NCBI GenBank assembly: GCA_013115125.1
Contig: JABANN010000355.1
Coordinates: forward strand, 1 to 35,868
From: Perkinsus olseni
Lineage: Eukaryota
Length of the DNA stretch: 35,868 nt
Direction of reading: 5' to 3'
In this document: positions 2,351-34,000 of the stretch, in pieces
Layout of the letters: each line of letters begins with the position of its first letter
Position numbering within the stretch: position 1 is the first letter of the stretch
The notes under the pieces: model-generated
Database searches by the model: none
What the model saw: only the letters and a program-made list of their open reading frames with translations
What the model was told of the DNA's origin: nothing
Made by a program: the position numbers and the translations under genes

Positions 2351-5150
2351 TCAATCTTCCTTCTTCGCCATAAATTCTTTGATGCAATCATTTACGGTAA
2401 AACTTATAGCGACAGCAAGAGGGCCTTTAATCCAGTTCATAGTAACTCCTTTATACAGACCATTTCGAACACCTTCCGTCTGAGCGACGTACATCATCGA
2501 TTCAAAAACACCACGGCCGCCGAAAGCGTTATTGCCGTGCACTTGCATCCGTCGCCGTACGACTTCGAGAGGGTAAGTAGAGGTTTGCGCGACCAGTCCG
2601 GCGATCGCACCACAGGCGAGCTTGTCGAGGGTCGACCAATGATTCTTATTTTGACGAATGTAGCTCTTCAGTGTTTCGAAGCACATGAAAGATGTACCGG
2701 CATAAGGCAAAATGCCGATCAGAGACGCCCCCACCCCCGAGTAGAAACCTCGGATACCCTGGGTATCTGAGGCAGGAAATTTATATTATCCACGTAATAG
2801 GTATAATGCACGATAGAAATCTTCCTCGCACAACCGTTTTAGGAAAGAAACAGTTCGACGCGATACCTTTTCGACAGGCTTCCAACGTTTACAATCCAAA
2901 CTCTATCAGCTAACTCTGATTATCCGACGATGAGACTTCTCCATCGGCAATAAGTCTGGCGGGTCGTCATTGAACTACCGATGTTGCTGTCTCGCCAGTA
3001 GTGGTAACATAGCAAAATTGACACTTGAAAAGATCTCGCAAGTTTTATTAACGCAGCTAATCGACGCGGCTGACCCTCAATGACTTTACGATGGCGCCGT
3101 TCAGATCGGTTAGCAAAAAAATCTTACGAAAATTCACAATCATCGAAAACCGATTTCCTGAATACATCAAAAAAGTCCGAGTGGAGATGCAGTACCCTCG
3201 GCAACTCCCGAGCTAGGTAGCTTCTTTGGTGGGGAATGAGGAGCCCGGGCGAAGAATTACCAATCAATGCCATAAACAACGAGCGAACTCTCTGAGTCGA
3301 CTTACGCAGTATTTTCTTAACAGCACGCGAATACGAAGAGTACTCGCCATTAACATCAACTGCCAGACGAGATCGCAGAACCTTACACAAAACGGCGGTG
3401 GAAATATCGAATTTTCGAGCGCCCATTACATCTGCGGGATAACTAACACAAATGGCAGCCGCACCAGAGACGCTGCCACTAAAGAAACGTATCAACATCG
3501 CGGGAACATGCTGACTTATGTACGGTGAATCTGAACGATCTGGCATGAACATGAGAGTTTCAAGAGTTTCAGCTCTCGTACGGGGTAAAACAGTACTGGA
3601 GCCCTCCCTTACCTTGCAGCCTGCGGTAAAGTCTGTCGAAAACAGTAAAGTTAGTAGCAGAATAAGGCATTATACGAACCAACGTAGCGATGTGGCCCTT
3701 CCATAAACCTAGAAGAACCAACAAAAAATTCTGGGAAAATTTTCCAAAGAAATTTTCCAATTGCTGTTTTTCCGATAATTTCCACCCATTCCTCTATGAC
3801 GCATAATTTCGGGTCGTGAAAAAGGTCAATCATATTCGTACTCGAATAGGAAGAAAGTGGACGCGACCAGCGACACTGGAGAAGACGAAGATTTCCGTTT
3901 TCGGACAAAAAATGAGGCGAAACGGCTTTTACAACCCGCCCGTTTCCACACTTCCCCGTAGTACCTGACAGGCCGTCCCTTTTTTGAATGTCCAGTAGTG
4001 TGCGCCAAACATTAGACCAGCGATACTGCAGGGTGTGGCTCGCTTGGAATCTGTGGGAAACCACCACTACTGATAAGAGACGGTGAAAAAACGCTTCGCT
4101 CCGCCGCCGCTACGAAGAGATAAATAATGGAGTTGAAGGGGAGACATCCCTATTTCAGAACGGCGTGGGCGAGCGAGCCTTCGGAAGCAGATGGCCCCTA
4201 CGAGTTTCCTTCAAAGTGTTACTGAGATTTTTAACAAGAGATTGAAGAGAAGATATTTCCGTATAAATCATTCCTCAAAATTGATTACTCTTATATGGTA
4301 GTTCGGGTTCCTCGCGCCGCAAGTATCGTTCTTTAAAATGTGGCATAAACCCTTCACTTCAGTATGTGGCATTTCCTCCGTTACAATTTGTAACGGCGTA
4401 GTAGCTAGGCTAGTAGTAGGCTGTAAGCTAGTAGTTAGGAATATGTTAGTAACTTACAAACATATTCCTAACTACTAGCTAAACGCACTTAGATGGTAAA
4501 TCCTGAATCCGTCAGGCAGTACAAACTTTGAAAAAGTGCTGATTCGAGTTTATTCCTGCACGGCGAAAATGAAAATACCGGTCGGTGCCGTTGCAGCCGG
4601 TGATCGAACGTTTGTACATCCGGTGGTCCGTGCCATAAACGGCGCTCCCAGGCGCCAAGGTCGGCTGGCATGAACTGAATACTGAATTTTCGCGAAGCCG
4701 AAACCCGCAGTTCTTTCGATTTTTCCCGACGCTCCAGAGTCCCCAGAAGACCTTTCCCAACACTAACGTCGGAAAAGTGAATCGTCCGGTTTTAATTCTG
4801 AGTTCCCGAAAATTCATCGAAAATTTCCAGAAAAACCGAAATTCCGAGGCAAGGGCGGGCCCGACCGTATAACATTATCTTCACCCTTTCAAGGAGCGGC
4901 AAATTTTTCTTGCAGAACACCAGCAATCGCCCGCTGCGTACTTGAATTTCTGCGCCCAAAAAAAATCTCGAAAATTTGCGGCAAAATCCGAAATTTCGAA
5001 GAGATTGACGGTCCGAACGTATTACATTATCTTCACCCTCTCCAAGGGAGCGACTATCGTCTTTGCCGAAGCACCGGCGATCGCTCCGCTGCATGCTAAG
5101 ATGGCGTTGGACAGATTCCGGGTATCGACCAGGGGGGCCTTATCGGGCAT
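2351..5150 (-). CDS. Mitochondrial carrier family (SLC25) protein, CoA-transporter/Graves-disease-carrier-like; 6 exons (approx. 5150-5026, 4050-3965, 3708-3613, 3530-3430, 3381-3306, 2766-2351)
   Basis: The spliced product has three carrier repeats with Px[DE]xx[KR] signatures (APLERVKIIFQ, YPADVLRSRL, YPLEVVRRRMQ) followed by GLWKG, GFYSG and GLYKG segments. All introns are GT-AG and phase-compatible. The subfamily call is by resemblance only. Confidence 0.9.
4426..4480. repeat. Perfect 22-bp inverted repeat with 11-nt loop in carrier intron 1
   Basis: AGCTAGTAGTTAGGAATATGTT (4426-4447) and AACATATTCCTAACTACTAGCT (4459-4480) are exact reverse complements. Confidence 0.95.
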
Positions 5151-6323
5151 TTGTGATGAAAAAACTGTAAAAACGAAATTAGCACGATTCTCGCAAGGTA
5201 TTCGACTGGTGTGGCTGTGGAGGAAAGAGACACGGACGGGAGCTGTGGGGAGAAAGCGCACTCTGAAGAAGAATCTTTTGACGGTTTCATAATGATGATA
5301 AAGATACGCTTATGTGCAACATATTTCCAGGATATGAGAATCCAGAGGGTGTCGGTGGATGCATAGTCAAACACGAATCTGTGGTTTGATTTTACACAAC
5401 TACAGCTCCTCTCTTCCAGACGCGTTCATACCAACTTTTACTGAACGGGCAGAAGTATAGCTGAGAAGGCTACGTGCTGCTACTATACCATTAACACCCA
5501 TTGAGTTAATCCTATTGAAGTTGATTCACTCACTAGAACGTTTAGACTGGAGACTGTGTCCTCGCCATTTCTCACTGCAAGGATCCTCACCTAAGGGTGA
5601 AACCGTCGCAGTGTAGAACATGGCATGTAAGACAAAAACTAAGATTATTCTTTATATCCACACTCCTGTGGACTTGCGTTCCCATTCATCATGACCGATG
5701 AACAGCACAACTGTTCTTACGCCTAGTCGAACGGTCGCAGTCTTGTTGTCAATTAACCCCTGGCGGGAAGTCTGGGTGAGTCTACCCCCAGAAAACTCCA
5801 TCTCACTCAGACCTCACCATTCCATGTTACTCTTGTGGAATCAGTTTTAGTGATTATTCTGGACCAAGCTCAAAGACCCCTGGCCCCGCGCGGATCCTGT
5901 TCAGTGGTTGAATAACCAGCCGTGGACTCCTGCCAGGATTTTACACAACTACCGATCTTCCCGAATCACCCTCCACCCGCAACACATAGAGATCTTGTCT
6001 CCATCTCTTGTAATCAGTTTTTGCGATTTTTTCGATGAAGCCAAATTCTATCGGCATCCCTCAGCTCTGTCGATGTTCCTGCTTTGGGGTCTCTTTCACT
6101 AACCCCATAACAATAACGAATCTTGAGGTTAGAACCCTCACGGCCTCGCCAGCTCAGGTAAACTCTAAGAACGTTTCACAAGTCCCTCAACCTCAAGTGT
6201 AATACAGTATTACTAATACTCAATCAAAACTTGTATTTGGTGTCGGTACACTTGCTCTCTTGCCTACACTTGCATTTCCTCAAATACCCCCTCCCCGTGC
6301 AAATCACGTCTCCTACCATCACC

Positions 6324-7937
6324 ATGACAGCTGTTGAGGACGACGAGGGTTCGCTGGGCGACTCTGAAGGAGAGGGCCCTCCGAGACCTCATAAATGCCC
6401 GCATTGTGGCAGCAGGTAGTAGCAGGGAATGGGTTATTTTTTTTTATTTTTCCGGAATTTTTTCATCGCTTTTGGGTGAATATCAGAGAGAGAATTAATA
6501 ATTACTTTCGCTGTAGCTACCTGGATTAATCGTCACTCGCCGCGAAACTCGCCTTTCTTATACGGCTGGACCCCCCTACAGTCGAGCGGGCACAAATTTC
6601 CCGGCACAAAATTTTAGTTGATCACCTCGCCCTTGCTGAGGATGCCAGAGGTCGTCTTCATTTTTCCTTCCGGCTGATTGGCATTCCTAAGATATACTCT
6701 TCATTCTGAGATTAGTAAACCCGTGAGGGTAGTCGTTGGTTCAGACATAGCTGCTGAGCGAGCGGTCGCTTTGGCATCATAGTCAGCCCGGGAGCGCTCC
6801 TGTAGAAGCATTCGTATAGCGATGGGATGTTACGATCAGCTTCCGAACCGTAAATACACTAGGCGTGAGTCGGAGCATATCAATGGCCTGTACGCGGAAG
6901 TGGTGTGGGAAATATCCGAGGTCGAACGTGGGAAGATACAGAAATTCTCTGGTAACCGACCATGATGGAGGCACCACACGATTCGCTCCCGGTATTTTTT
7001 TAGTTTCTTCGGAAGTACTTATTATTGATTTTATGCTACTTTTTCCTGTTCGATCGATATCGTCGATTCCGCGCTACTTTTCTGTACTCAACCCACGTCA
7101 CTCCCTCCCTACTACTTTCCCCTAGGCAATCGATTTTTGCCTCCGATGATACAAAAATATTTTCTCAGGTTCCTCAAGAAGGCTCATCTTGATCGTCACG
7201 TCTCCTCAGTCCACACCGACGATCGCCCCTACCAGTGCCTGATGTGTCCGAAAACTTTCAAGCGGGCAAGCCATCTGAAACGGCATGAGGAGAACGCTCA
7301 TTCTATTGAGAAGAATGAGATTTGCGAGAAATGTGGTAAGGCGTTTGGCGGGTCGGAGCAGCTGCGGCGCCATTTGAAGCGACATCGGGTAAAGGCTGCT
7401 CACGTATCGGATACGCTGTCCGTGGCGAGTATCATGTCAAGGAAGGCGGAGCTGGTGGTTGACAAGCGGATCGAGGAGCCTTCAAAGGAGCCCGAGCATC
7501 GCTGTGAGCAATGTGGGAAGAGTTTTTCTCGGTTAAGGGGTTTGCGATTGCACATGCGGTCGAAGCATCATCGGACGAGGGGTGGCGAGGTCGTGACGGA
7601 GCTGCCGTCCTTCCCGTGCCATCTATGTGGTTTGGAATTTTCTACGGGAAGTAACAGGAATGCTCATATGAGAGTGAAGCATCCAGGAGGGACGCCGACG
7701 CAATTCAAGTGCTCGAGATGCGGGTTCGAATCCCCCTACCGACATGTTGTTGTTCGACATGAAAAAAATGTTCATGACGGCGGCGGAGCGAAGCGACGGG
7801 TCGAAAAAGAGGATTCTCCTGTGGTGAAGAAAGCGTGTCGGTTTGATACGTTTGGGAGGATGAGCGGACCGAGCTCGTTATTTATGGCGAGGATTCCGAT
7901 TGGGGTGGGCAGCGGCAGCAGCGATAGCGACGTGTAG
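6324..7937 (+). CDS. C2H2 zinc-finger protein with six fingers; exons 6324-6415 and 7169-7937
   Basis: The splice joins HKCPHCGS|RFLKKAHLDRHVSSVH into a complete finger. It is followed by a TDDRPY linker and fingers CLMC, CEKC, CEQC, CHLC and CSRC, each with a His pair. Confidence 0.88.
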
Positions 7938-8144: not shown

Positions 8145-11100
8145 ATGGGGAAGGACTACTACAGGATCCTCGGTGTCGACAGAAATGCTGGACCTCAGGA
8201 AATAAAAAAAGCGTAATAATTTCGTGGCGCGCGGGAAATATTCAAACCCGACTCCACCGTAATAGTTTCGTGGCGCGTGAAATATGTATTCTTTTCAGAT
8301 ACCGAAAACAAGCTCTTCGGTGGCACCCTGATAAAAATCCTGACAACCGTGAAACTGCAGAACACAAATTCAGAGACGTAAGCGGAAAATTTCGCCCATT
8401 TATTGTAAAATTTTTTCTCATTCTCCCTGCATCTTACCGTACGTATCCTGCGGTAACCCCAATTTTTGGCGAAACTTTTGCAATTTTCTGAAAATTTCCC
8501 AGTTTGTTCGATATTTTTTCATCATTGTCAGATAGCAGAAGCATTCGACGTGTTAAGTGACACACAGAAGAAACAAATGTACTACCACGGAATTTAGCGG
8601 AGCGAAGCGCTTTTTGGTCACAATTTTAGGTCTCATATTTTATGAAAGGAACCCAGGCATTCGCGAGATTTAGTTTCTCTCATCTTTTCGGTTAAGTTTT
8701 GGCCAATTTTTTCGACCAGATTGGTGTGCTAATTTATAGTCGGGACGTTCAGTGGAATTTTTTCCGGCTTTTCCGTCGATTTTACGGTTTTTTCCCATCA
8801 GATATGACCAATTCGGAGAAGAAGGATTGAAGGATGGCGGTCCAGGTTGTGGATTCGGACCTGGCATGTAATCGTTCGTGAATAATTTACCCATTTCAGG
8901 GCGGTCGGATTCGGTCATCAGAGTAATTCGTTATCAAAAGGTGTCGATCAGAAATTTTGATTTTTTTCTCCTTTTTCCGTACAGAAAAAACCGGGAGTTT
9001 CTTACGTCCTTAAAATTTCGAGCGATGAATTAATTTGAAGGCAAAGACGGTTGAGGCGTGCAAAAATTTCGTGCTTTTTGTTGACCACGATGTGGATACT
9101 CGTGGTTGTAGTGTCAACCAAGTTGATTTCATTATGAGTTGGAAAGTAACTATTTGTTAATGATTGGTATTCGCAGTTTTCCTGATTAAATATTTTTATT
9201 AGGAGAACTGTTTCCTGTATTTTTTGTGGCAGGTTTGGCGGGCGAGGTGGCGGTTGCCACTACAGCTTCTCTCGCGATCCGAATGATATCTTCGCGCAGA
9301 TGTTTGGAGGAGGCTTTGGCGATGGTATGTTCATGAATGGCGGAATGGACGACTTCGGTGACTCCTTCTTTGGAGGTAATCGAAAGGTCGTGGGTTCGAT
9401 CCCGGGTAGGGAGGTTTTTTGGTATTTCTTCAGGAATGAATCGACGGAATGGCTTCGGGCGCTGCGCGTCTACTCGGGCTCCGAGTCCTGAGCCGAAACA
9501 AAGCCGTAAGCTCGAAATCGATTAACTGGCCGTTTCATTTCGAGAAAATTTCGCGTGCCACGAAATTGTATTGGCACTCAGGCATTGCGGAGTTCGATTT
9601 AAAGTGCTCTCTCGAGGAGCTGTACGGAGGCAAGACGAAACGGGTTAAGGTGAGTTTGCCCGCGGGAGGTACCGGGTTCGATCCCGGCATGTGTCGTTTT
9701 AATCAGATCAAGAGATCAAGCTGCACTGTTCAAAGGCCGTCCGAGACTACGTTAGAAATTGAAGTGAAGCCCGGCTGGAAAGCTGGTAGGAACTTTTCTG
9801 ACACCTCTAGCTTTCCGCGGTTCCGGTTATGTCTGTGTGAGATTTACCAGTTCAAACTTCGAAGAATATGGAAAAATCGATAATTCTGAGGAATGTCCAA
9901 TTTCATGCGAATAATCTTTCGATCTGTTTGAAGCCACGATCGACCTACGGGTTGACGAGAGGCCGTCACGCAATTGGGGGGGAGGGCTGCGAGGAGCCTA
10001 GCCAACAAATTTTGATCGGGGCTGGTTCGTGCCTGTAGATCGCAACCAGGGTAAACGTGGTAGATAATGGTATGATAGGAATTGGCTAATGGTAGACAGC
10101 TCAGGTAGCTCAATAGTAGCGCTCGCCCTGACACAACTCATAGTCTTGTGATATAACAACCACAGGGCCCGAGACGACAACTTAGTGTTGGAAGCTGTTG
10201 ATATTTGACCAGTTAGTATGTTTAAATCAATAATATACTCGCGGAAAAAATTTACGAACTTTTGGTAAAAATTGCAGAACAAGGTTGGACTGGAAATTCA
10301 AGCGTCGGGAGGGCTCGGACATGCTCATCCGTATTTTCCTATCCATGATAGTTTTGTACATGAAAGTACAGAAATTTCCGTTTTTTTTCGAGAAAATTTT
10401 TTTTGAGGGAATCTCGTAAACGCAAGCGTAATTTCCGAGGCTTCATCACAATGTACTGATCTGGTTATAAAGCCTCTAAAGGAATTAGCACATCGATGAG
10501 AGTCCAAGGCGGTCGGACTATCAAGCGCACGCGTGGATGGCGGAACACTTTCAAGTGAGATACGTTTTTTCAGGTACGAAAATCACTTTCGGTGGCGAAG
10601 GTGATGAGCTTGGGTGCACTGGACGGTGTCAAGATGTCGCCTTTGTCATACGCGAGAAGGGACATCCTCTGTTCGAGCGTTCTGGGTAATGATAGGGGAA
10701 AAAGGCTCAGCTTAATTATTCATGTGCGAGTTTCGCGGGAATTTTCGCGCAATCTTTTGTGTAAAAATCGAATTTTGTGTTTTTTTTGTTCGAGCGTTCT
10801 GGGTAAAGGGAGGGAGAGGCTAGCGTAAACTGAGAAATTTGCTCGAATTTTTATTCGATTTTCTCGGAAAATTCTGGAAAAGGAGAATCCTGAGAAGGGG
10901 ATGTTGTGGGGGAGAATGGTGTGATTTGGGGAATTTATGGTATTGGTGTATTTTTCCTGATTTCAGATCGGATTTGATTTACAAAAGAAAATTGACGCTG
11001 AAAGAAGCTCTCACAGGTTTCGGGATGGACGTACCGACTTTGGCTGGGGCGACCAGAAGGTAACGATTTAAGAAATGGGGAAATTATTCTGATATCGGGA

Positions 11101-11287
11101 AGATCTTTTTTGCAGATTGAACGTTGATCATATGGTTAAGCCCGGTAGCCGCGAGATTCTTTACGGTGCGGGGATGCCCATCTCGAAGGAGCCCGGAAAG
11201 TTCGGGAATCTTATCGTCACTTTTGACGTGGAATTTCCGGACAATCTGAGCAGAGCGCAGATGGAGGCGTTGAAGTGTCTTCTATGA
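8145..11287 (+). CDS. Class II (DNAJB/Sis1-like) Hsp40 co-chaperone, about 11 exons
   Basis: [11 protein letters not shown]...[15 protein letters not shown] (J domain, HPD motif), then a G/F-rich region, then C-terminal [31 protein letters not shown] and [23 protein letters not shown]. No CxxCxGxG zinc-finger region. Intron phases are consistent. Confidence 0.95.
9376..9433 (+). repeat. 58-nt intron made largely of a tRNA 3'-half-like element (DnaJ)
   Basis: GTAA TCGAA AGGTC GTGGG TTCGATC CC... Confidence 0.75.
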
Positions 11288-11529
11288 TGATGATGGTATT
11301 ATTAACGGGGAAGGTTGGGTATGTGCACGCGTGCTCATACCAACTTTTCCGTAAATTACGTCACTGAAAGCATCGTTGTCGTCGTCGTCTTACTCTTGTA
11401 TGTCCGATTAAGTGGCTTCAACAACCTGTACCAATTATATTCACTTTCGTCGCGAAATTATCAAATACTCAACCACTCTGTAAAATGACCTGTCGATTAG
11501 GATAATCTAAGCTCAGTAGAAATAACGAT

Positions 11530-31029: not shown

Positions 31030-34000
31030 ATGTTGTCAAAGATCGCCTACCCAACCGTCCGCCCAGCATTCTCCTTCGTGACTGCCACTTCCTCTCGAGT
31101 CCGAGCCTTCAGTGCTCCTGCTGACACCAAGGTGAGCGCATCTTCGGAAATCTTTCTGTCATACAGAATCACCGCAGTACCTTTACTTTGTCCTCCCGAG
31201 AGACGCACTCTCGCGTTTGTTTGAGACCGGCTGATTGATAACACCACCGCCAGGGATCCAATCCTTCATCTTCTTGCCTTCCGCCACTCAGCGTAGCTTC
31301 TTATCGGAGCAGGATAGGATCAGTGGAATATGCTCAGCACACTGCTCAGGTTGTTCTTCCTCGTGACTCCAATCAAGCTCTAGGGATCGGCAAGTTTGCT
31401 GTGGAATTCCTAGACGGCAAGGTGAGAACGCTATACCACACCTTCCGCTACTCCTAATCCCATCGAATCTTGTCAGATTGGCGGTGATATCGATCCGGCT
31501 GTCTACCGAAGAGTGGAGATGTTCCACACCGATTCAGTGAGTCTCGTTTCTCGATTTTCTCTCAATATGAGTTTTCAGGTTATGTGCGGCATCTCAGCGT
31601 TAGCCATGCACACTAACGCCCCGACTCTGCTGAGAAGTGAGGCCTTGGAAGAGTATAGGGATCCGTAGGTTGGGGTTGGCTCGTTGGGCACATGATCACG
31701 AGTATTTCGATATTTTTCCATTTTTGCGGTTTTTGAAGATGGAAAATGACGCAGATTTTTTCCCTTTTTTGAGTCCTTTGCTGTGATGGATAGCGCTGAT
31801 TTTTCCGGTTTCTTCTGTTTTTTTCGAGAAGGAAAGATTGGCGCCGTTCCCAATATCCGGTGCAGGATTTATGAGGGGGCGTTGTGTCGATCGTTGATGG
31901 CTAACATTCACCCGACCTTGCCGTCCGTAATTGCTGCAATGTTGTGGCGCAGTGACTTTCGTCTTCAGACGAGGTGCGAAAGTTTTTGGAAGCTCCGAAA
32001 AGGTAAAGGCTGAGAAGGCGATCGCCGCTAACTCTAGTGCTGCGAGGGAGTGGGATTCTAATGGTGGGAATTTCGTGGCGCGCGAAATGTCTCACTGCTT
32101 ATGTGTTAGGCACGGTGTTCGGCTACAACGCTTGTAATCCGAAGCACCAGGTAATCAGAAGGTCCTGGGTTCGATCCTCGGTAGTGCTGTTATTCTAGGC
32201 GGGAGAATTTGGCCATAATGACTTCTACCCAGTAGTAGTCGCTGCTGCTCAGAAGACGGGCGAGGTTGATGGCAAGAAAGCTCTGAATGCTATGATCCTA
32301 GTCGGTAAGTTGGCGGTAAGCGGTCTGCGCCCTCTTCACTCGTCGTCTCTCCTGTTCGTACGGTATGATTGGTATGATCATTACGATTAGAGTCATCATC
32401 GCTATCCGTTTTTCAACACAAAAGTCAAGTGTTGCTGTATCCTAGGGTTCCCAGTACTGTATTGCTTGGTAATTGTTAATTGAAGCCAGAGGAAACACAG
32501 AGCATGGTCACGCTATTTTTGTTTTGGCATCTTAAAGGCATCTGTCGGAGTTAAAACTCTCATTTGCGAAATCCCCCCTTTCAGATGAGATCCGCGGCCG
32601 TCTGTGTGAGGTGTTCTCATTGAAGACGTACAAAATCGACCACGTGGTAAGGCGGCCCTCATCGGGCTTCGATTGCTCTCAGAGTCGGACAGGTCCATGG
32701 TGCTGTCGCTTCGGCCGCGGTGTATGGCGCTTTGATGGGAGCCACTCCGGAACAGATTGAAGCGGCTATTGGTAGTGGTGGGGCATAGCTTCCTTTCTGA
32801 AAGTCAGAAAATAGTCCTTGGGGGTATTCGAACCCCGGCCTGTGTTAAGGTATGACCAATGATCTGACATCGCTATCGTCGTTCAGGAATGTTCGTCGTG
32901 CATTACATCCCGTGGAGGGGCATCAGAGCCGGGAAGCAGCTGTCTGACTCTAAAGGCGCTTCGGCGGCTATAAGTGAGTCCGCTAAGACTCTCATCACTC
33001 CGGTTCCCGCGGTTGATAGGTACCGAGGCTGCTATCCTGTGCATGCAGCGAGCGATGAACGGCTTCATGGGGCCTAGGTGAGCTCGCTTCGAATCATTTG
33101 TCGTTGAGCTGATTTTGAAATTGATGAATCATGATTCTGTGCTGGACTTGGTGGTGTGCTTTTTGCCAGGGATGTCTTCCGCAATCCCGAGGCGATTTTC
33201 CGCTACTTTGAGCCTCAACAGGATGGGCAGTGTCCCTTTGATATTGTAAGATGGGGGGATTTGAGAAAAGCCACTTGCCAGGATTGAACTGACGACCTTC
33301 TGCTTACGAAGCAGACGCTCTACCACTAAGCTAAAGTGGCTCTGGTTTAATATAGTGACTAGTTTGGTTCCTCCTCAGGAGCTTAGCCACAGCGGGGGCG
33401 ACTTCGCCGTGATGGGGATGCACTTTAAGCTTGGCCTGTATGAACATCAGAGCGCTGGTGCTCTCCAGGGAATGATCGACCTGCTCATGTGAGTCCACCG
33501 TCGATAATTCTGGGAGCCGCATGAGTGATGAAAGCATTGTCGCAGACCGGGTATTTTTACCCGTTCTTCAAATATCCGCTTCATAGCGGATTTTGCGTCG
33601 CTTCCGGGGTGGCACGCTCTTTATGAGGACCACGTCGAGAGCTCCCTGAGAAATCATAGGGCTCCTGGGGATTTTCGTTCTTCGATACTCAGCGTTTGAC
33701 ACTATGAACTCCGCGGGGGAGAATACTTCACACTGTTGACAGGGCGCCTCTTCTCACGCCGTTCAACTCGAGCATTTAAAATTCATCTTATGCTGCATTT
33801 TTACTAGTAACGTGCATAAGTTAGTGATGGAGGAATTGAAATGGGTTGATTGATATCGTTGCACGGTCGACCGATTTGTGGATGTCAGGAATAACCCGGA
33901 GCTGATGAGGGATCCGTCGAAGATCAGAAACATCAACGTCGTGGCGTAGGACACTATCGGCCGCTGCCGGCGTTCCCTCTTTCCTTCCAGATACGAGCCT

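Follow-up and report, generated by a model that had tools for sequence, protein, structure and literature searches.

The window analysed here is a single stretch of 35,868 nucleotides (nt) of Perkinsus olseni DNA (contig JABANN010000355.1 of assembly GCA_013115125.1), in which densely packed plus-strand genes carry many short introns. Its subject is an element of ~43 nt resembling the 3' half of a transfer RNA (tRNA) gene, B box included, which we find at ten sites in a DnaJ (DNAJB-type) gene, an unidentified open reading frame (ORF) region, an RFC3-like gene, a gene with a PCIF1_WW domain and a gene of the MmgE/PrpD family. The last of these genes also holds a complete tRNA-Thr(CGT) gene within an intron. 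Exon translations from the window are 96-100% identical to P. olseni proteins, 95% identical to those of P. marinus, and 69% identical to those of P. chesapeaki. GT-AG joints and loose 5' ends are visible in RNA contigs on the window, which were placed over positions 13100-33099 only. The denominators for introns are the 14 GT-AG joints shown among 51 RNA joints, together with maps of the orthologues. Intron density is very high, as in RFC3, where 11 introns interrupt a coding sequence of 1047 nt (~10 per kb coding).

The element and its tRNA source

The tRNA-Thr(CGT) gene lies at 33268-33341 on the minus strand (identified by ARAGORN, and by the Rfam tRNA model with 68.4 bits), and it is the one tRNA used in the tool-based comparison. 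Once brought to the same sense, all ten copies of the element align without gaps to its 3' half. The aligned span starts at anticodon position 35 and runs through the variable loop, the T arm and the acceptor strand to the terminator. We scanned for the B box with the pattern GGTTCRANYCC, using 100 shuffles of the window as background. The pattern matches seven times against 0.35 expected, and none of the 100 shuffles reaches seven, their maximum being two. Six of the seven matches are inside elements. The B-box core that the initial annotation placed at each of the ten sites is indeed there, exact in six copies and one letter off in the other four (18839, 25646, 32151 and 32772; copies are named here by the start of their intron). 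In two copies, the second T of the GGTTC core is replaced by an A. The seventh match, at 7723, is in coding sequence: the B-box-like stretch 7721-7748 encodes part of a zinc finger in a C2H2 ORF (7146-7934). Most likely it is a chance match, possibly an exonised copy.

At the place of the RNA polymerase III (Pol III) terminator, six of the ten copies carry a run of at least four Ts, compared to 3-6% of random 11-nt windows. Three of the five antisense copies have this run, and there a pyrimidine tract is not expected. Since the T run stands where the real gene has its terminator, the sequences point to a tRNA gene, or to the primary transcript of one, as the source and not to a mature tRNA. 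When the ten copies are made into a profile, it finds them again with expectation values (E) of 1e-08 to 5e-05, matches that hold by construction. Elsewhere in the 35.9 kb the profile goes below E 0.01 only at the tRNA-Thr gene and at the zinc-finger exon match; there is one further weak match in the window (E 0.017), and no copy in its intergenic DNA. The element-free short introns of the same genes contain nothing similar to the element.

The T stems of the copies are mostly broken, with 69% of the cells paired versus 65% in shuffles and the outer pairs at chance. ARAGORN and Rfam both call the gene at 33268-33341 and no other, so that no element is called as a tRNA gene; a focused Rfam scan of 9360-9720 also gives no tRNA match. 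For remnants of a tRNA 5' half, a single-sequence BLAST, which is a weak test, returned none beyond chance words of at most 9 letters. Broken T stems and the lack of a visible A-box half had both been described for these copies before, and both descriptions hold, the second within the reach of ARAGORN and of this weak 5'-half test. From these comparisons we consider the derivation of the copies from the 3' half of a tRNA gene strongly supported.

The position of the element relative to the splice sites follows a pattern. For the seven short candidates, which are 46-58 nt long, 74-91% of the intron is taken up by the 43-nt element, so that these introns, close to the minimal intron size, consist almost wholly of element; the smallest element-free introns of the same genes measure 41-57 nt. 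Three of the five sense copies have their donor GT at element position 1, aligned with G35 and T36 of the Thr anticodon; with A37 and A38 following, the anticodon loop reads as a GTAA donor. For four of the five antisense copies, no more than 5 nt separate the donor from the element's end, and the acceptor AG of the three short antisense introns is 3-11 nt past the other end. The last five columns of the model overlap the upstream exon in the 18064 and 25646 copies. In the long introns, the element is found at the donor end (18064 and 18551) or in the middle (32772).

Host genes of the ten copies and evidence for splicing

Five copies are sense to their host gene and five are antisense, in agreement with the earlier description of both orientations. 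RNA contigs, orthologue proteins or both back seven of the ten introns, and a comparison with homologues backs one more. The initial annotation had taken all ten as introns: eight have this support, the one at 9376 is a prediction, and the one at 13326 is unverified. It had also given seven of them lengths of 46-58 nt, which is right, with a single boundary to be moved (see the PCIF1 gene below). Its junctions, where checked with RNA, appear as joints at 18064, 18551 and 18839, and through the length of RNA records at 25646 and 25793.

The DnaJ gene, with a DnaJ_C domain on exon 11117-11284, hosts two sense copies on the plus strand. Intron 9376-9433 (58 nt, element 9376-9418, 74% of the intron) has its donor GT at tRNA positions 35-36 and a run of six Ts after the acceptor-like strand. 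It is one of 64 frame-compatible GT-AG solutions, with splice letters that look consensus-like by eye. In a search of representative proteins, no close DnaJ orthologue was found for this junction: the DnaJ-sized matches in one stretch have at most ~59% identity, and the junction is in the unconserved G/F region. Intron 9650-9706 (57 nt, element 9658-9700) has the element beginning 8 nt past the donor and a run of four Ts ahead of the acceptor. Its 19 in-frame open codons are absent from both of the DNAJB homologues compared. The next copy (13326-13368, sense) is in a claimed intron of 47 nt, 13326-13372, on the plus strand of the unidentified ORF region. Because there is an in-frame TAG at 13327-13329, where the ORF could end, this copy may be within a 3' untranslated region (UTR) instead.

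The RFC3-like gene includes three of the introns. Intron 18064-18210 (147 nt) has a minus-strand, antisense element at 18059-18101, with the donor GT in the complement of the acceptor-like strand; its RNA joint is present in 4 runs, and collinearity across the intron holds for the proteins of both P. olseni and P. marinus. Intron 18551-18763 (213 nt) has a sense, plus-strand element at 18561-18603 that starts 10 nt past the donor. This copy is the weakest of the family (nhmmer E 5e-05), and its intron has both an RNA joint and collinearity with the orthologues. Intron 18839-18888 (50 nt) is 86% element (18843-18885, antisense on the minus strand), with a run of four Ts, on the strand of the element, beside the donor. 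Its RNA joint is unambiguous, and the RFC3 proteins of P. olseni and P. marinus are collinear across it. The 3' half of the RFC3 gene has a partial tandem duplicate at 22336-24410, with direct repeats 76-93% alike, protein matches of 67-94% and low RNA depth. At 17960 and 24806, directly upstream of the RFC3 and PCIF1 start codons, the loose 5' letters of the RNA match the end of the spliced leader PmaSL1 as given in PMC3101222, and these positions are trans-splice acceptor sites. Metagenome contigs searched with the RFC3 protein of P. olseni and with a PCIF1 alignment yielded no related locus.

The gene with the PCIF1_WW domain has two minus-strand, antisense copies. Intron 25646-25691 (46 nt, element 25641-25683) is supported by RNA record length and by collinearity with the P. 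olseni and P. chesapeaki proteins; the complement of its T run falls in the upstream exon. Intron 25793-25845 (53 nt, element 25792-25834) had been drawn as 25793-25839 and is corrected here by 6 nt, which makes the element ~79% of it. To fit the RNA records, 179 nt have to be removed between 25643 and 26035, and introns of 46, 53 and 80 nt yield the 586-nt span of the records. There are 75 frame-preserving solutions involving these two introns, and only the set 25646-25691, 25793-25845 and 25955-26034 agrees as well with the proteins of P. olseni and P. chesapeaki. The orthologues read ..EK/CG.. over the 25793-25845 junction (marked by the slash).

In the MmgE/PrpD-family gene, intron 32151-32198 (48 nt, plus strand) is 90% element (32151-32193, sense). 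Its donor GT is at tRNA positions 35-36 and its T stem is intact (5/5 pairs); the intron has an in-frame stop and corresponds to a 16-codon gap versus the P. olseni and P. marinus proteins. Intron 32772-32886 (115 nt) has an antisense, minus-strand element in its middle (32809-32851, nhmmer E 1e-05), and the residues on its two sides follow each other directly in the P. olseni protein, with collinearity at residue 235. The intron that holds the tRNA-Thr gene, 33246-33378 (133 nt, tRNA on the minus strand, antisense to the host), is a gap flanked by residues 308/309 of the P. olseni protein. By eye, its first ~20 nt resemble the start of the element intron 25646.

Pairwise, the copies agree in 15-34 of 43 positions (35-79%). 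The closest pairs are 9376/32151 (34), 18064/25646 (33) and 13326/18839 (32 of 43), and the two members of each are in different genes. The 13326/18839 pair has opposite orientations, and the stretch earlier reported as common to the two, ATCCCGGCACCCGG, is real, the two matching over 39 nt with 82% complementarity. In some pairs the similarity appears to extend to both exon-intron boundaries: in global alignments, introns 9376 and 32151 agree in 40/48 positions, and intron 25646 agrees in 35/46 both with 25793 and with 18839; the same measure for unrelated short introns is 0.51-0.76. By columns, conservation is highest in the B box (0.88), followed by the variable loop (0.83) and then the T run (0.80), and lower in the anticodon stem (0.60) and the acceptor (0.49). 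The columns common to tRNA genes are kept and the tRNA-specific parts differ, a pattern that fits several source genes or tRNA-derived masters without any selection on the copies themselves. When only the three closest pairs are compared, 50/60 positions agree in the core (variable loop, T arm and B box) and 49/69 in the flanks, a difference that is not significant (p=0.14).

Origin of the introns

The window shows the tRNA derivation of the copies, the splicing of most of them and a fixed relation between the splice sites and the element. We tentatively read the copies as old, diverged fragments of tRNA genes or of tRNA-derived Pol III units that are now minimal introns, introner-like, and that would have been spliceable from the start. 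We put this reading forward as possible rather than probable. As part of it we infer that insertion created the introns, by the mechanism and with the timing outlined below, and that several source genes or sub-families contributed.

Fragments running from the anticodon loop to the oligo-T terminator would have entered protein-coding genes in either orientation, either as 5'-truncated copies of Pol III transcripts or as captured gene fragments. The supply would have been plentiful, since P. marinus is reported to carry hundreds of copies of some tRNA genes (349 tRNA-Leu and 116 tRNA-Gly are counted in PMC3706591). Such a fragment would be spliceable at once, since it brings a donor along with a pyrimidine-rich stretch and already has the minimal length. 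In a sense copy, G35 T36 A37 A38 of a Thr-type anticodon loop would act as the donor GTAA, and the T run of the terminator as the pyrimidine tract ahead of a nearby AG. In an antisense copy, the complement of the acceptor end would hold the donor or have it no more than 5 nt away, and in the short antisense introns an AG 3-11 nt past the complement of the end of the anticodon loop would complete the intron. A stronger form of this proposal takes the tRNA-gene 3' half as a self-sufficient intron cassette, whose complement works too, and which seeded a sizeable share of the minimal introns of the lineage. That stronger form we regard as doubtful.

Several observations weigh against an origin of these introns by insertion of tRNA-gene fragments. 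All the evidence comes from one window of ~36 kb, and two of its ten introns are the predicted one at 9376 and the unverified one at 13326. The range of pairwise identities gives no sign of recent mobility. As to target-site duplications, the two flanks of a copy share on average 4.1 letters, versus 3.96 in a control that pairs flanks of different copies. Across the junctions, the annotated P. olseni, P. marinus and P. chesapeaki proteins run collinear, a result with which old introns common to these species would agree. In the three long introns (147, 213 and 115 nt), the element is just 20-37% of the length. Finally, the intact tRNA-Thr gene in intron 33246-33378 demonstrates that tRNA genes do reside in introns here.

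That intact gene also raises a third possibility, next to the introner-like elements and the TFIIIC-binding sites that the initial annotation had considered and missed by it: because a whole tRNA-Thr is found inside an intron, the half-elements could be decayed intronic tRNA genes. The introns would then predate the elements, whole tRNA genes or tRNA-derived repeats having landed in existing introns and deletion, as these shrank towards the minimal size again, having left the 3' half. A possible route would be deletion between an old donor GGTAA and the similar letters of the anticodon loop. We treat the decay of intronic tRNA genes as a serious rival, and judge it rather unlikely. Much of what was just listed speaks for it: the complete tRNA-Thr is in a 133-nt intron of the same MmgE/PrpD gene that hosts two of the elements, three of the element introns are long and one of them (32772-32886) has its element mid-intron, no target-site duplications were found, the copies are old (15-34 of 43 alike), and for three Perkinsus species the proteins run collinear across the junctions. 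The short introns are harder to obtain in this way. At a coverage of 74-91%, the original intron must have been lost almost totally, and the element kept, seven separate times. The 3' half must be the part that survives in 10/10 cases, and no 5' remnant is seen, with the caveat that the 5'-half test is weak. Also against it is the exact match of the donor to anticodon positions 35-36 in three of the five sense copies.

Another explanation concerns why the copies are there rather than how the introns arose. The copies would be retained because their B box binds TFIIIC, as putative A-box-less sites similar to the extra-TFIIIC (ETC) sites, with a role in the chromatin organisation or the insulation of these packed genes. 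The state of the B box agrees with this idea, as it is exact in six copies and one letter off in four, no other columns are kept as well, the outer T-stem pairs being at chance level, and neither a cloverleaf nor an A-box half is detected. However, the variable loop and the T run, neither of them part of the B box, are kept about equally (0.83 and 0.80), the three closest pairs show no significant advantage of the core over the flanks (p=0.14), and two copies have lost the second T of GGTTC to an A. Nor does TFIIIC binding account for elements that abut splice sites and avoid intergenic DNA. Different tRNA genes as sources would give the same pattern just as well, and so would Pol III-transcribed masters with selection acting on their own B box. 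Of the two interpretations in the initial annotation, then, the part that rests on a tRNA 3' half is strongly supported by the alignments, and the TFIIIC reading gains no support from the conservation pattern; we consider it improbable. Last, that GC-rich short introns merely resemble a T arm by chance or composition can hardly be credited: the zinc-finger match at 7723 shows that single matches can arise in coding sequence, and against this are the seven B-box matches where 0.35 are expected, the gap-free 43-nt alignment to a real tRNA half with its terminator, profile E values of 1e-08 to 5e-05 (for a profile made from the same copies), and element-free short introns of the same genes that have nothing similar. 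We conclude that the finding is real and unusual.

Other repeats, related systems and implications

The window has other repeats besides the tRNA-like element. A second short family, of ~21-25 nt with a GC-rich centre, has plus-strand copies at 8218-8238, 8264-8284, 15431-15451, 19029-19049 and 32069-32089, and minus-strand copies at 9537-9567, 16292-16315, 26143-26168 and 30020-30044. The plus-strand copies are 3-16 nt behind intron donors; of these donors, the starts near 8213 and 32064 are assigned by eye, and intron 19011-19188 is RNA-confirmed. In antisense, the repeat fills much of the 48-nt intron 30006-30053, and another copy, 26143-26165, is within a coding exon of the PCIF1 gene. Two RFC3 introns have in common a 26-nt motif (24/26) in the same orientation, at 18147-18172 and 18698-18723, unlike the tRNA-like elements of these introns (18064-18210 and 18551-18763), which are oppositely oriented. 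A partial match to this motif occurs at 6249-6283 on the minus strand. A near-perfect 27-nt hairpin at 4426-4480 (96% complementary, 1-nt loop) has microRNA-like matches in Rfam that are weak and far under the threshold. Within the PCIF1 gene, the first long intron contains a 58-nt inverted repeat (81%) at 25061-25241, an arm of which recurs as a direct repeat ~2.8 kb upstream, at 22291-22334; from its sequence, this repeat looks like a small foldback or a miniature inverted-repeat transposable element (MITE).

Among known systems, the closest are the introners or introner-like elements described in Micromonas, Aureococcus, fungi, Polarella, Symbiodinium and Amoebophrya (PMC9860276, PMC12130899, PMC7789003). 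We use the introner criteria of PMC12130899. As in introners, whole introns of unrelated genes consist of one repeat, which supplies splice signals and whose similarity between introns, in some pairs, appears to extend to the splice sites. Unlike in introners, the source is a tRNA-gene 3' half with no recognised transposon, the copies are 35-79% alike with none near-identical, no terminal inverted repeats or target duplications are found, and the Perkinsus copies use both orientations equally. The main texts of the introner surveys PMC9860276 and PMC12130899, whose supplementary species lists were outside the search, contain neither 'tRNA', 'SINE' nor 'Perkins', and the Amoebophrya paper, in the portion we draw on, has P. 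marinus as a comparison genome only (PMC7789003). Surveys of this kind may miss copies as diverged as these, because they look for sequence similarity among introns. Our literature search found nothing on tRNA-derived introns or on Perkinsus introners.

tRNA-derived short interspersed nuclear elements (SINEs) carry A and B boxes internally, together with a body and with a 3' tail that is A-rich or similar to that of a long interspersed nuclear element (LINE). Like them, and like fragments of retro-pseudogenes, the elements here are dispersed, decayed copies that keep the B box and have lost the cloverleaf pairing. They differ in having no A-box half, body, or A-rich or LINE-like tail; they begin within the anticodon loop and finish with a T run like that of a Pol III terminator. 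The ETC or B-box-only sites of yeasts and animals are isolated B boxes without an A box or a transcribed tRNA. The elements share with them a B-box consensus without an A box, and differ from them in that the conserved part is wider than the B box and in that they are inside minimal introns, abutting the splice sites. There is also a likeness to tRNA genes nested in introns, of which the window has its own case, the tRNA-Thr(CGT) in the MmgE/PrpD intron 33246-33378; the ten elements, by contrast, are halves that are not called as tRNAs. Finally, P. marinus has Dada DNA transposons of 4.7-11 kb that, according to PMC3706591, insert in the A-box region of tRNA genes, whereas the elements here break at the anticodon loop. 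We recognised no Dada-like element in the window, and the Dada transposase was not searched for.

The origin of new spliceosomal introns is a long-standing question, and to our knowledge the known intron-generating elements are transposons. If the fragment-insertion reading is true, pieces of ordinary cellular genes can supply the donor, the pyrimidine tract and the length of an intron, a transposon-free route to introns. The stronger cassette proposal, if true, would add a class of introners that comes from Pol III genes, not from transposons, and that leaves a dense array of A-box-less B boxes inside genes. If the introns are instead older than their elements, the window is a clean example of the remodelling of minimal introns, and much less surprising. 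Introns made from tRNA fragments could help explain the very high intron density of Perkinsus.

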